Positions 1,900-28,687 of a stretch of DNA of 64,000 nt are shown here, in pieces. The translations under genes were made by a program, and so were the position numbers. The stretch lies in the sequence record MT446421.1; one strand, written 5' to 3'. The stretch is from Escherichia virus TH55. Position 1 is the stretch's first letter. Each line of letters opens with the position of its first letter. Below the pieces are notes generated by a model. That model was given only the letters and a program-made list of their open reading frames with translations, ran no database searches and was not told the origin of the DNA.

Positions 1900-2652
1900 T
1901 TAATTAAAAATTTCAACAACCATGGAACGTGGAACAACAGTAAATTCACCAGCATGAACAACGTTCAGGAGTTCAACGCCATCTTCAATCCACTGGTCTG
2001 TTACCCAACCACAAATGGAACTGTTAAATGGGCGTTTGATTTGAACTGGTTTACATAACAAGTCAATAGGGTCACCCAGTTCGCTAACTTCTTCCAGCAG
2101 TACAGATTCACGCGGATAAAGGATAGCTTCAAGATTGTCACCTGATTCATTGACCGCAGTAAATTCAAAGATGCTTTGGTGATTGTGGTACTTAACTGTT
2201 TTAACGGTAAATGGAGCAAATCCAAAAATACCTTTCAGTACGCGCCAACCGGCATTCAATGCATTAGTATTATCAAAATCACCATATCCAACAAGTTGAT
2301 AGATTTTGCCAACTTTGATAGGAGTTTCTTCAACTTCCTTGAAGAGCTCAATCTCAGCTTCATAAACAATAATTTTTTCTACTTCATTAGTATCAAGGCG
2401 ACGTGCATGCAGAATATATGCGTTATAAAACCAGTTACTTTTTACAAAAGTTTCAACAATAAATTCACCTTCACCTAAAGCATCAGCCAGAGTATTATAC
2501 CCAGAAATCATAGCTGCGTTTTGAGTAATAGGTTTAACCAGATGATAAGTTTTGTTAATTTCAATAGTCATATTTTGTTTCTCAAGTTTTAATGGTTTAA
2601 TTGGGCGAACATACATACTTACAACATCAAAGTCAATAAATTCTGGTTTCAT
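1900..2652 (-). CDS. hypothetical protein
   Basis: 250-aa ORF; C-terminal VTDQWIEDGVELLNVV block shared with 1330..1821. Confidence 0.6.
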   Translation of the reverse strand: MKPEFIDFDVVSMYVRPIKPLKLEKQNMTIEINKTYHLVKPITQNAAMISGYNTLADALGEGEFIVETFVKSNWFYNAYILHARRLDTNEVEKIIVYEAEIELFKEVEETPIKVGKIYQLVGYGDFDNTNALNAGWRVLKGIFGFAPFTVKTVKYHNHQSIFEFTAVNESGDNLEAILYPRESVLLEEVSELGDPIDLLCKPVQIKRPFNSSICGWVTDQWIEDGVELLNVVHAGEFTVVPRSMVVEIFN

Positions 2653-2909
2653 TATGCAACCTTATTGAACATCGCCAGTTGATTAGGTTGTACAACCATA
2701 ATTTCACGACGACCTTTGGCGTTTGACACGTTCAGGTAGATGCCTTTGTTCATGTCTGTTTCTTTATCATATACCGCAATTTTATTGACAGTAAAGATTT
2801 TACCACGAATATTTGTAAATGCACATTCAAACGCTTCAGTCAGACCTGCTTCAGCAGCTTGAAGAGCAGACATTTCATATTGTTGGCCAATTTCAAAAGA
2901 AGTAATCAT
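2652..2909 (-). CDS. hypothetical protein
   Basis: ORF 2652..2957 trimmed: upstream 48 nt is the promoter/leader motif; ATG 2907-2909 has GAGGA SD. Confidence 0.55.
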   Translation of the reverse strand: MITSFEIGQQYEMSALQAAEAGLTEAFECAFTNIRGKIFTVNKIAVYDKETDMNKGIYLNVSNAKGRREIMVVQPNQLAMFNKVA

Positions 2910-2940
2910 TTTGTTATCCTCATCAGTAGTTGATGAGATG

Positions 2941-2969
2941 ATTATGTCTCTTTCCATTGGCCTTGTACA
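2941..2969 (-). promoter_or_regulatory. early-type promoter
   Basis: -35 TGTACA 2964-2969, 17 bp, -10 CATAAT 2941-2946; conserved leader CATCAACTACTGATGAGGA. Confidence 0.55.
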
Positions 2970-2976
2970 CTACTTT

Positions 2977-3660
2977 TTATCGTTTTTTCGGTAAAGATAA
3001 CGGGTCTGCATCTTCTTCGGAAGGAACTTCATCTAAACCAAGAGCATAGCGCTGGGCGTACTTAAGCATCAAAATATCTTTCGCGCAGTCATGCACCGAA
3101 TCATGCGCCACAAATCCATCTAAAGTCCCCTTTGGTAATGGAGTTTCACACATCTTACGGACGAGTGATAGGGCTTCGATTGCTGTCCTGATATCTCGCT
3201 GGTTCCAGAATACAACCGGCTCCAGGCCATAGGTATTCAATTCACGCTCGGGAATACCCTCATTGCGCTGTAGGTCACGGATAAGGTCAACAAACAACGG
3301 GAAGTCAAAAGACATTCCACGACACCACATAAGGCTTTCGTATTTGTTAATTCCATTACCATTCAGATAATCAATTGCCTGTTGGATACCGGTCAGAGTA
3401 TCAACATCTTGCGCAGAAGGAGCCAAGTTAACACGGGCTTCTGCTGATTGCTTTTTCCACCAACCCATGGTTGTTGTATCGAACAGACGCTTACCTTTTT
3501 GGTATTCAAGGCTAAACTTGATACGTTTGCCGCGATTAACCAGGGTTTCGAATGATTCCACAATAGCAGGGTCAGATTCGAATGTAATCAGAGCCAGGTC
3601 AATAACGGCTCCCTTCGAGCCGTTTCCCAGAGTTTCAAAGTCAATAATAGCATCAATCAT
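2977..3660 (-). CDS. dexA: exonuclease A (DexA)
   Basis: 227 aa; near-colinear with recalled T4 DexA (MxDxIIDFET...GFVAHDSxHDCAKD...). Confidence 0.85.
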   Translation of the reverse strand: MIDAIIDFETLGNGSKGAVIDLALITFESDPAIVESFETLVNRGKRIKFSLEYQKGKRLFDTTTMGWWKKQSAEARVNLAPSAQDVDTLTGIQQAIDYLNGNGINKYESLMWCRGMSFDFPLFVDLIRDLQRNEGIPERELNTYGLEPVVFWNQRDIRTAIEALSLVRKMCETPLPKGTLDGFVAHDSVHDCAKDILMLKYAQRYALGLDEVPSEEDADPLSLPKKR

Positions 3661-3737
3661 CGCACATCTCTTTTAATTTTTGAATTTCACCAGCAACCAT
3701 CGCACATCTCTTTTAATTTCTGAATTTCACCAGCAAC
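3658..3737. repeat. 40-bp tandem direct duplication (2 copies, 1 mismatch)
   Basis: catcgcacatctcttttaattt[t/c]tgaatttcaccagcaac at 3658-3697 and 3698-3737; spans dexA start. Confidence 0.85.
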
Positions 3738-3932
3738 ATAGTCGGAGATAAAAATCCCTGGCTCTTCATTGTTAAAATATTCAATCGCGGCCATACGTTT
3801 CCGAATAAGATTCAGTTCCAGCAAAACGTAATTACCCTGCACGACGATAGTCGGATTATCTTCGAAAAATTCAACCGCGTCCTGAATACCATAGATAAGA
3901 TTATCTAAATCTTCTTTATGTACTTTATACAT
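3687..3932 (-). CDS. hypothetical protein (dda.1 position)
   Basis: ORF trimmed to ATG at 3930-3932 with GAGGT SD; 3' end lies in the 40-bp tandem repeat. Confidence 0.5.
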   Translation of the reverse strand: MYKVHKEDLDNLIYGIQDAVEFFEDNPTIVVQGNYVLLELNLIRKRMAAIEYFNNEEPGIFISDYVAGEIQKLKEMCDGCW

Positions 3933-5253
3933 AATATGCGTCGTACCTCGCTCGTGTGATTCCAACATAAGCCAACTGGCTCGCTAATGAAGCTTCGGCC
4001 ATATGGATGCATGGAGTATAGATGAATGCTTTGTCCACTGAAACGCCTTGGGCCTTGTGGATTGTACTGACCGGAAGAGCACGGACTTTCAAGAAGGTCC
4101 TGCGCGCTTTCCAGAAGTCTTTCCACTCTGGACGTTTACCAGCGGCTTTCATCTGTTTGTATGTGTCAGCAACTTTCGCCAGATATGCCTGGAATTTTGG
4201 TTGCTGGTCTTCTGGTAAAACTTTGATGCGGTCAACCTGATATTCTTCATCTTCATCAATTGACTCAACTTCCAGGTCCCAGTAATTAATCACTAACTGG
4301 TGCGATTCGCCTTTACAGCGGAGAATAGTGGAAGTGTATTTGCAATCCTTGATGCGAACCAACTGACCATTATTAAAAATGGTTTCGCTGAATTTCTTAC
4401 CTTCAAATTCCAGCTCTTTCATGTGCGGCTCTTGCATAACCAGGACTTCATACGGTAAAAATGCTTTATCCGTTTCATAGAGCTTGCGACGAATAATATT
4501 GTTCAGTTTTTCAACTGATTTATTCGTGTATGCATACATCCTGTTTTCCATCAACATATCAGCATCTTTTACAATACTGAAATAGTTTACCATGAAATCC
4601 TTTAAAGCGGTTTGTGAGGTGAAACCTTGCACGCCATGACCTTCATACATACAGTCACGGAACCAGCCGCCATTGCGAATTTCTGTCGCCACTTCAATGA
4701 TAGGAGCATTGCTTCGCATGACCTCAGTCAGATGAATCTGTTTGAACTTAGGATGCGTAAAGAACGGGCTTATCTTTTGCTGTGTGCTTCCCGGGTCAAC
4801 TGGCTGCAGCTGGTGCATATCACCAATTCCAAGAATAGTGCACCATTCAGGAACAGAGTTAAGAATAATCTTAAACAGAGACCCGTCATACATACTTGCT
4901 TCATCACAAACCAGAACATTGCATTTTGACATGTCAGGCATTTCGCGCTGTTCAAAAACGTTTTGGTCTTCATATGTCGTTGGGTTAATCTTCAAGATAC
5001 TATGGATTGTATTCGCTGTTTGACCAGACAATTTAGATAAAACTTTTTTCGCCTGGTGAGTTGGTGCAGCAAGCACAATTCCCATAACTCCATTACGCAC
5101 TAAGTGGTCAATGACAAATTTTGTCAGAGTGGTCTTACCTGTGCCAGCTGGACCATTCAGAGTGATACATTCCCCTGAACGTCGCTGAATAGCTTCAGTA
5201 ATATAATCAAAAGCTTCTTTTTGTCCTGTGTTCAAGTCTTCAAATTTAATCAT
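3925..5253 (-). CDS. dda: Dda DNA helicase (SF1)
   Basis: 442 aa; Walker A GPAGTGKTT; colinear with recalled T4 Dda. Confidence 0.9.
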   Translation of the reverse strand: MIKFEDLNTGQKEAFDYITEAIQRRSGECITLNGPAGTGKTTLTKFVIDHLVRNGVMGIVLAAPTHQAKKVLSKLSGQTANTIHSILKINPTTYEDQNVFEQREMPDMSKCNVLVCDEASMYDGSLFKIILNSVPEWCTILGIGDMHQLQPVDPGSTQQKISPFFTHPKFKQIHLTEVMRSNAPIIEVATEIRNGGWFRDCMYEGHGVQGFTSQTALKDFMVNYFSIVKDADMLMENRMYAYTNKSVEKLNNIIRRKLYETDKAFLPYEVLVMQEPHMKELEFEGKKFSETIFNNGQLVRIKDCKYTSTILRCKGESHQLVINYWDLEVESIDEDEEYQVDRIKVLPEDQQPKFQAYLAKVADTYKQMKAAGKRPEWKDFWKARRTFLKVRALPVSTIHKAQGVSVDKAFIYTPCIHMAEASLASQLAYVGITRARYDAYYV

Positions 5254-5549
5254 GCCAATTTTACTCGCTTAACATATAAAGTATCTAAAATTAATTTCAA
5301 TTCTCGTGCGTGTTCTTCAGTAGGAAAAACAGTTTTTGTTCCCCACTTATCAAACCACCATTTTCTAGGTGTGCATACTGTTTCAATACGTCCCATGCGT
5401 AAATAGCGGCTTGTAGTATATGAATAGTTGGCAAGTTCATATTCTGCGCCCACTTTTGTGGTGTATAAGGTAACCTTTCCATCATACTCCAATGGGTGTT
5501 CAAAACCATCTTTATCTTTGTGGACCAGCACATATGCGTAGTACATCAC
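5250..5549 (-). CDS. hypothetical protein
   Basis: 99-aa ORF abutting dda. Confidence 0.5.
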   Translation of the reverse strand: MMYYAYVLVHKDKDGFEHPLEYDGKVTLYTTKVGAEYELANYSYTTSRYLRMGRIETVCTPRKWWFDKWGTKTVFPTEEHARELKLILDTLYVKRVKLA

Positions 5550-5550
5550 A

Positions 5551-6297
5551 TTAACCTCTAATCAGTTTAAAAATTGACGCGTTCAAAGGCAGACCACGTT
5601 TCAGTTTTAATTTACCAATAAAACCAATCTTCTCAAAACGCTCAAGACCTTGAATGATTTTATCATAGCAATCAAAAAGCGTTTCAGCATTAGTTAATTT
5701 CTTGGTAACTTTCCAGTCATTACCTTTGAGCAAGACGTTCAATTTAGTAAGCTCATGACCTTCCGCAATACGGGAACCATCAATGCGAGCCTTCAGAGCA
5801 ACCATTTTTAATTGGTTTTCTTTGGACTGCTCTGATTTACTCATTTGAGCATAATGCTTAACGCGATTCTCACGTTTGTGTTGGATGTTCTTGATATGGG
5901 TATATGACTTTTTAATCTGTTCCCATTTCTCTGCAGTCAGATTTAACTTTTCAATCTTCTTGACAGATGGACGAGCAATTTTTACAGCAACATCATCACG
6001 ACGTTGTTTAAGCTCATCCAGGGACCAATCAGAACGCATGGTGTTGTATTTCTTTTTAACAGGAATAACATTACCTTTGATATAACCAATGTCATTGTTA
6101 AAACGCTCTAATGATAACTTCTCACCTTCAATAGAGTTATTAAATGTTTCACCAGAATAAGCACAAACTTTTTGGTCAAGAATGTTAACCAGGTAATTGA
6201 AATCCAGGTTAAAGTCCTTGCCACGACGTTTAGCAGAAGCTTGAGTGTGTTCCAGGCGACGTTTAACTTTCAGCGTTTTGGTTTTTGATAAAGTCAT
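5551..6297 (-). CDS. hypothetical basic protein (T4 srd position); weak HNH-like segment
   Basis: 248 aa; LSLERFNNDIGYIKGNVIPV resembles degenerate HNH_3 motif; position between dda and the ARTs. Confidence 0.5.
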   Translation of the reverse strand: MTLSKTKTLKVKRRLEHTQASAKRRGKDFNLDFNYLVNILDQKVCAYSGETFNNSIEGEKLSLERFNNDIGYIKGNVIPVKKKYNTMRSDWSLDELKQRRDDVAVKIARPSVKKIEKLNLTAEKWEQIKKSYTHIKNIQHKRENRVKHYAQMSKSEQSKENQLKMVALKARIDGSRIAEGHELTKLNVLLKGNDWKVTKKLTNAETLFDCYDKIIQGLERFEKIGFIGKLKLKRGLPLNASIFKLIRG

Positions 6298-7708: not shown

Positions 7709-7978
7709 CTACTTAAACACTCCAAGTGGAACGCCAAAGACTGCAATGTCTACGGCCATACCAATCGGAGATTGGTATGATGGAGATTGATATGATGAGT
7801 AAGAACTTTTCGATTTTATCGGGGTTTCGACTTTAATTGTCTCGGATTCAGTCTTAAGCCTTTGTAAACGATTAATTTTTTGTTGCTCGATTTCCTTATG
7901 AGCATGTTTACGGTCGATATCCAGCGCCGATGTGGGAATATTTGTTAACCAGTTCATTGTTTCACCCATGGTGCCCAT
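7709..7978 (-). CDS. hypothetical protein
   Basis: 89-aa ORF. Confidence 0.45.
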   Translation of the reverse strand: MGTMGETMNWLTNIPTSALDIDRKHAHKEIEQQKINRLQRLKTESETIKVETPIKSKSSYSSYQSPSYQSPIGMAVDIAVFGVPLGVFK

Positions 7979-28392: not shown

Positions 28393-28687
28393 TTACGATT
28401 TCCCAAATTTGTTTGCGAGTAGTTTCCCACATCAACTTAATCAGGTCTTCCGTAACTGGTTGGCGGTAAATTCCACGCAGTTTAACTAAAGCATATTTGT
28501 ATGCTTCAAAATTGTTTTCCAGCACTGCCCCTTGAGCATGCTTATTCAGTCGTGCAATTTCACGAGCATTCTTTTTCAGAATCTTTGCCGCTTGACTCTG
28601 TGCTTCGAGTGCGTTCGCTTCTTCGAGACGTTCCTGTGCTTCTTCAATCTGCTTATCGGTCAGTTGAGAAATATCTGGAGCTTGCAT
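28376..28687 (-). CDS. hypothetical coiled-coil protein
   Basis: 103-aa ORF. Confidence 0.5.
   Translation of the reverse strand: MQAPDISQLTDKQIEEAQERLEEANALEAQSQAAKILKKNAREIARLNKHAQGAVLENNFEAYKYALVKLRGIYRQPVTEDLIKLMWETTRKQIWEIVNGISK

Follow-up and report, generated by a model that had tools for sequence, protein, structure and literature searches.

The junction between dexA and the small gene upstream of it carries a tandem duplication of 40 bp in Escherichia virus TH55. The duplication is genuine and lies above chance. It is an ordinary but tidy structural polymorphism, akin to known short tandem duplications. It is probably an old duplication that still segregates among related phages, having arisen once, spread by recombination and been lost repeatedly while being nearly neutral. 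The sequence analysed is a stretch of 64,000 nucleotides from record MT446421.1, called the window below, and all positions refer to it.

All genes in this region lie on the minus strand. The gene dexA (2977-3660, minus strand) codes for the 3'-5' exonuclease A, a protein of 227 amino acids (phrog_255 exonuclease, PF16473) that is 65% identical over its full length to T4 DexA and shares its start. How DexA behaves depends on temperature (PMC12153337). The small ORF upstream of it (3687-3932, minus strand) has 81 amino acids, or 93 if translation begins at an alternative in-frame ATG further upstream, at 3968. The assignment of this ORF to the DexA.1/DexA.2 family follows from its match to phrog_5263 (E 2.9e-32), from a precomputed Pfam match to PF26837 (Phage_T4_Y00H_G) and from synteny; a Pfam scan of the ORF run here returned nothing at E≤0.01. 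With BLASTP the ORF is 31% identical to T4 DexA.2 (E 2e-9) and also matches T4 DexA.1 (E 2e-4), and the GenBank depositors of related phages have labelled it "similar to T4 DexA.2". The sequence-only reading had described the upstream gene as dda.1-like. This identity was rejected, as BLASTP gave no alignment between the ORF and T4 Dda.1, and the family PF25693 (Phage_Y01A, E 1.1e-26) instead matches the ORF at 5250-5549 (minus strand), which lies upstream of dda and is the dda.1 homolog according to the annotations of relatives as well.

The T4 proteins DexA.1 and DexA.2 (PF26837) have a similar length to the product of this ORF, which has 79 to 81 amino acids among the Gaprivervirus phages, and are encoded at the same place between dda and dexA. 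However, T4 has two such paralogs, whereas Gaprivervirus has one, and the duplication-bearing allele has a tail that is extended by two residues and contains Cys. The T4 RefSeq record NC_000866.4 names the 81-residue DexA.2 (NP_049631.1; positions 1644-1889 of the locus that was read) "dextranase", which looks like an error of name propagation.

The early-gene cluster is a chain of start/stop overlaps. The dda.1 homolog overlaps the helicase gene dda (3925-5253, minus strand) by 4 nt (5250-5253), and the stop of dda overlaps the start of the DexA.2-like ORF by 8 nt at 3925-3932 (ATGTATAA). The geometry of the latter overlap equals that of the ancestral overlap between the DexA.2-like ORF and dexA, and only this last link of the chain is broken by the duplication. 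The GenBank annotation of phage ECML-359 (OL631482.1) has no CDS for the homologs of dda.1 (5250-5549) and srd (5551-6297). In the window neither ORF is disrupted, and VR20, SP18 and others have annotations for both.

The two copies of the 40-bp unit are arranged head to tail with no spacer between them and are identical at 39 of 40 bases. On the minus strand, which is the direction of the genes, the unit reads GTTGCTGGTGAAATTCA[G/A]AAATTAAAAGAGATGTGCGATG, or GTTGCTGGTGAAATTCAGAAATTAAAAGAGATGTGCGATG as written in full. The distal copy (copy A, 3698-3737) lies inside the DexA.2-like coding sequence and matches the unit exactly, while the proximal copy (copy B, 3658-3697) has a single mismatch, G>A at unit position 18. 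This lone difference appears as T/C on the plus strand (3680 and 3720, respectively), corresponding to A/G on the minus strand. Tandem Repeats Finder reports the repeat at 3654-3737 with a period of 40, 2.1 copies, 95% matches and a score of 154, the highest of the three tandem repeats that the program finds in the window, the other two being weak. A repeat search at the site found a single direct-repeat family with a spacing of 40. Allowing up to three mismatches, the unit occurs exactly twice in the whole window, and in 100 shuffled, dinucleotide-preserving versions of the window there was no match at that threshold, which rules out chance as the source of the repeat. The direct reading of the sequence, Tandem Repeats Finder and the shuffles thus all bear out the two near-identical units with one T/C difference that the sequence-only reading had described. 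It was also correct in stating that the duplication takes in the dexA ATG together with its 5' region, and that a second, out-of-frame ATG is created 40 nt upstream. Each ATG closes its copy: that of dexA takes up the final three bases of the proximal copy, and the second one (3700-3698) those of the distal copy.

The consequences of the duplication are best seen by comparison with the relatives that have one copy. In these phages the small ORF is 79 codons long and ends with GAG ATG TGC GAT GAT TGA (EMCDD followed by the stop). It overlaps dexA by 8 nt (ATGATTGA), and its last 37 nt double as the ribosome-binding region of dexA. In the window, the distal copy encodes VAGEIQKLKEMCD and supplies the first base of a new Gly codon. 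The proximal copy then continues the reading frame as GGT TGC TGG TGA, giving a protein of 81 amino acids that ends in EMCDGCW, with the new TGA stop at 3689-3687. The DexA.2-like protein is therefore altered at its end only, where the final D is replaced by GCW. The earlier suggestion that one unit encodes MCDGCW holds only in part: the residues up to VAGEIQKLKEMCD do come from the distal unit, but G-C-W and the stop come from the junction and the proximal unit. The new tail contains a C-x-x-C motif (CDGC).

The stop codon of the DexA.2-like ORF and the dexA ATG (3660-3658) are separated by a gap of 26 nt, inside which lies the weak Shine-Dalgarno sequence GAG. Except for G>A at position 18, the single-copy phages have the same 37 nt in front of the dexA ATG. 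At the level of sequence each of the two functions thus comes to have a copy to itself: the distal copy specifies the C-terminus of the small protein, and the proximal copy the predicted initiation region of dexA. At this junction the overlap that characterizes a translationally coupled gene pair is present only in the single-copy relatives and is absent from the window. The possible change in coupling that the sequence-only reading had raised would rest on this shift of stop and start from an 8-nt overlap to a 26-nt gap.

The duplication also creates a predicted mini-ORF of 15 codons (3653-3700, minus strand) with the translation MVAGEIQKLKEMCDD. It starts at the duplicated Shine-Dalgarno sequence and ATG of dexA (3700-3698) and runs as far as the ancestral TGA (3655-3653), a stop that overlaps codons 2 and 3 of dexA. 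The mini-ORF has the sequence features of an upstream leader ORF, namely a Shine-Dalgarno sequence with a start codon, a short reading frame and a stop that overlaps the main start.

No other element was recognized in the unit. A search of 3658-3737 for sigma-70-type promoters and intrinsic terminators, which excludes MotA-dependent promoters, found neither. Reading GTTGCTGGT as a MotA box was rejected because by eye it is a poor match that lacks TAnnnT at the right spacing. No inverted repeats were found at the repeat locus. Four predicted folds of mRNA segments in and around the repeat, covering the duplication and the single-copy form, gave z-scores between -0.09 and +0.88. RNA structure, a promoter or terminator made by the repeat and template switching at inverted repeats were all rejected on these null scans. 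The duplex energy between the dexA Shine-Dalgarno sequence and the anti-Shine-Dalgarno sequence is -2.9 kcal/mol in both forms, compared with -6.4 kcal/mol for T4 dexA. The two forms are also similar in how accessible the dexA start region is predicted to be, with values of 0.50 for the single copy and 0.60 for the duplication.

Comparison with close relatives, which the sequence-only reading had proposed as a check, was made by a megablast search with positions 3400-4000 of the window (601 bp) against 50,697 phage records. The search retrieved 33 records representing 27 distinct phages. Those records for which a taxonomy was retrieved are classified as Gaprivervirus, except for three whose taxonomy line ends at a higher rank, and the junction was read at 25 fetched loci. 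The alignments are either unbroken and 601 bp long or split in two and 561 bp long. Across the 601 bp, ECML-359, TH22 and UPEC07 match the window at 100% identity. The duplication is present with identical endpoints in nine of the 27 distinct GenBank genomes (ECML-359, TH22, UPEC07, TH41, MN01, TH54, TH57, UPEC01 and VR20), and the carriers share the junction GCGATG joined directly to GTTGCTGG. The sources of the GenBank carriers include Lithuania, USA, Uganda and Bangladesh. The remaining 18 phages have a single copy, and among them are close relatives with otherwise colinear flanks.

The nine metagenome contigs that were read in Logan and ENA assemblies all carry the duplication; they had been found by an exact match to the duplication form of the protein. 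Both forms occur in neighbouring sequencing runs within one accession series, as SRR11772948 and SRR29999943 hold the duplication, whereas SRR11772956 and SRR29999876 hold the single-copy form. In the Logan contig of SRR11772956, dexA (1069-1758) is called with 229 amino acids rather than the usual 227, which implies a C-terminal or stop-codon variant. Scans of IMG/VR for either arrangement, the duplication junction or the site with one copy, found only VR20, VR25 and VR26, and a scan of JGI metagenomes found one single-copy contig. No three-copy form was seen among the relatives and contigs compared.

The two copies have diverged from each other to different degrees in different carriers. Seven haplotypes are found among the 18 carriers, and the copies differ at zero to three of the 40 positions. 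In the window haplotype the distal copy equals the reference and the proximal copy has 18G>A, and in VR20 and UPEC01 the proximal copy has 36C>T. Other carriers have 9T>C or 36C>T in the distal copy combined with 2T>C, 5C>T or 18G>A in the proximal copy, and a single contig (L038) has two identical copies. The suggestion that the duplication looks recent is not supported, given its presence in nine of 27 genomes and in nine contigs, the seven haplotypes and the differences between copies of up to three bases in 40.

Some single-copy phages are nearly indistinguishable from carriers at this locus. If the 40 bp are set aside, EAWsc9 and ECML-359 have the same sequence for about 1.3 kb around the site. 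YenP8 is the same as ECML-359 over about 0.7 kb, and so is M719-6WT.2, save for the allele at unit position 18. At this position EAWsc9 and YenP8 have CAG, as in the distal copy, while M719-6WT.2 has CAA, which is otherwise found only in proximal copies. These two single-copy outcomes are those expected if unequal crossovers fell to one or the other side of position 18. Upon constructing a neighbour-joining tree from 700 bp of flanking sequence on each side, the duplication character was found to need at least seven changes. The duplication is scattered through the clade of SP18, VR20 and ECML-359 and is absent from the clade of VR7, VR25, VR26, TH15 and TH40. However, the flanks of the site are a recombination mosaic, so that the local tree is unreliable and gains are not formally separable from losses or from lateral spread.

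A single origin, followed by recombinational spread and several independent losses, is the most likely history to produce this pattern. In the ancestor of the SP18/VR20/ECML-359 sub-lineage, slipped mispairing or illegitimate recombination would have produced the duplication a single time. In the single-copy sequence the endpoints share microhomology 40 nt apart, consisting either of a perfect TTG or of a match at five of six positions (gTTGcTG and aTTGaTG); this could be due to chance, and it hints only weakly at slippage as the origin. Homologous recombination would then have carried the duplication onto different backgrounds, and unequal homologous recombination or slippage between the copies would have removed it repeatedly. 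Small patches of homology, of less than 50 bp, suffice for T4-type recombination (Singer et al. 1982, as cited in PMC2839356), and the collapse of a 40-bp repeat is thus to be expected.

The effect of the duplication on expression is probably mild, judging from the arrangement of starts and stops. Ribosomes that finish the DexA.2-like ORF 26 nt upstream, or the mini-ORF at the old stop, could still reinitiate at dexA. As reinitiation would remain possible, the output of DexA should be little changed, and we infer that the variant is nearly neutral. On the other hand the Shine-Dalgarno sequence of dexA is weak, and losing the 8-nt overlap could therefore matter more than is assumed here.

It is also conceivable, although unlikely, that the duplication is an adaptive "decompression" of the junction that is kept by selection, either because it uncouples the translation of dexA from the DexA.2-like ORF or boosts it through a relay over the mini-ORF, or because the C-x-x-C tail has gained a function. 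Roughly between a quarter and a third of the sampled genomes keep the duplication, and this persistence could reflect selection, since it is found in nine of the 27 GenBank genomes and in nine contigs from several continents in spite of being a recombination-prone repeat. Nevertheless, it appears to have been lost repeatedly in close relatives, and the deep VR7-type clade is without it. The weakness of the dexA Shine-Dalgarno sequence makes the coupling geometry potentially important, and the 8-nt and 4-nt overlaps of the adjacent genes form a consistent pattern that the duplication breaks, but dexA is non-essential in T4. The GCW tail with its stop is intact in every carrier that was ascertained from DNA. 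The changes 2T>C and 5C>T, which occur in the proximal copy only, are synonymous in the frame of the tail, and no proximal copy has a substitution at position 9, which belongs to the new stop. These tail-synonymous changes come from contigs retrieved by protein match, however, and an excess of conservation free of this bias is absent. The exact match forces an intact tail, so that its apparent conservation in the metagenome contigs is an artefact of ascertainment and was rejected as evidence for selection on the GCW residues.

Recurrent duplication of the same 40 bp at a mutational hotspot, with carriers that are unrelated by descent at the site, is quite improbable. The scattered distribution on the local tree with its at least seven changes, the several haplotypes, the imperfect TTGnTG repeat 40 nt apart in the single-copy sequence and the identical copies of L038, which could be a fresh event, would all be compatible with such a hotspot. 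However, 18 of 18 carriers share the junction to the exact base even though no perfect microhomology determines its endpoints, nor is there an inverted repeat or quasi-palindrome that could act as a template. In addition, 18G>A in the proximal copy is common to ECML-359, MN01, TH54, TH57, L033/L040 and L051, on divergent backgrounds. This argues against independent origins, as the change is not expected from independent duplications of a CAG-containing unit.

The repeat might further be read as a reversible, recombination-driven switch (a "contingency locus") between an overlapped, coupled state and a decompressed state with the mini-ORF and the C-x-x-C tail, both being kept by fluctuating selection. 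We consider this highly improbable; if it were true, the fluctuating selection would act on DexA dosage or on the function of the small protein. A recent duplication private to this lineage, or an assembly or sequencing artefact of this genome, is scarcely credible, for although the copies in the window differ by one base only, the identical structure is found in phages sequenced independently in different laboratories and countries and in Logan and ENA metagenome assemblies, with multiple haplotypes and up to three differences between copies. The occurrence of the same structure in independent assemblies excludes an artefact as far as public data allow, and the earlier worry about assembly is effectively refuted by the nine GenBank phages and nine metagenome contigs.

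In its behaviour the duplication is like the short tandem duplications and deletions known from the classical genetics of the T4 rII region, which arise at short or imperfect repeats and are resolved by the efficient homologous recombination of the phage. As in such duplications, the copies described here are head to tail with no spacer and are present or absent among close relatives. The single-copy derivatives have chimeric or alternative alleles, which crossovers between the copies would be expected to leave, and 40 bp is within the range of T4-type recombination. Unlike the rearrangements of T4 that were selected in the laboratory, this is a natural, geographically widespread polymorphism situated exactly at a gene-gene junction, and its endpoints lack a clear and perfect microhomology.

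In T4-type genomes, modules are shuffled by way of cassettes termed PeSL, for promoter-early stem-loop (Arbiol et al. 2010, PMC2839356). The 40-bp unit resembles them in being a short repeat that ends in the Shine-Dalgarno sequence and ATG of the downstream gene, in lying in a plastic early-gene region and in being a possible substrate for recombination. However, it has no sigma-70-like promoter, stem-loop, terminator or AT-rich upstream block. The unit is mostly coding, occurs only twice in the window and does not flank a cassette gene. An identity as a PeSL regulatory cassette was rejected on the lack of a promoter, stem-loop and terminator in the unit.

The ancestral arrangement is that of overlapping and presumably coupled pairs (ATGA, TAATG or ATGnnTGA), of which the single-copy Gaprivervirus junction ATGATTGA shows the classical overlap; the T4 dexA.1/dexA junction is a TAATG overlap. 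In the window, by contrast, the two ORFs no longer overlap; the upstream one stops 26 nt before dexA, and the mini-ORF bridges the distance to the old stop. This layout resembles the T7.1 design, in which overlapping phage genes were reportedly "refactored" by duplicating the segment that they share. A literature search found no paper describing the present duplication.

The junction offers a natural example of a short tandem duplication that separates the coding of a C-terminus from the ribosome-binding region of the next gene. It also illustrates the fate of a repeat in a recombinogenic T4-type population, where the repeat appears to spread, to diverge slightly between its copies and to collapse repeatedly, leaving either allele. 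The duplication is a useful strain marker for therapeutic phages of Gaprivervirus (ECML-359 and the UPEC and TH series), and annotators should be aware that the small ORF upstream of dexA comes in two natural lengths. Should the duplication measurably change the synthesis of DexA, it would provide a simple natural system for translational coupling.

Several minor features were noticed in the surrounding sequence. The ORF just downstream of dexA (2652-2957, minus strand; phrog_17795, function unknown) is annotated with 85 or 101 amino acids among relatives. In the longer version the phrog_17795 profile matches residues 17-101, suggesting that the shorter start is the usual one. In Escherichia phage DCP80 (PQ671644.1, 140,978 bp; positions 1-1871 of the fetched locus), CDSs for the tail sheath and the terminase large subunit adjoin this ORF, at the position that is occupied by motB.1/motB/cef in every other relative. 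The DCP80 genome is about 30 kb short and has two places that match in megablast, and it looks mis-assembled or rearranged.

One of the other two tandem repeats in the window is a weak 18-bp repeat at 28598-28642, with 2.5 copies, 75% matches and 20% indels according to Tandem Repeats Finder. The other is a 15-bp repeat at 7767-7797 (GGAGATTGATATGAT, 2.1 copies on the plus strand), which is in frame in an ORF of 89 amino acids (7709-7978, minus strand) and encodes the motif SYQSP-SYQSP near the C-terminal third of the product.
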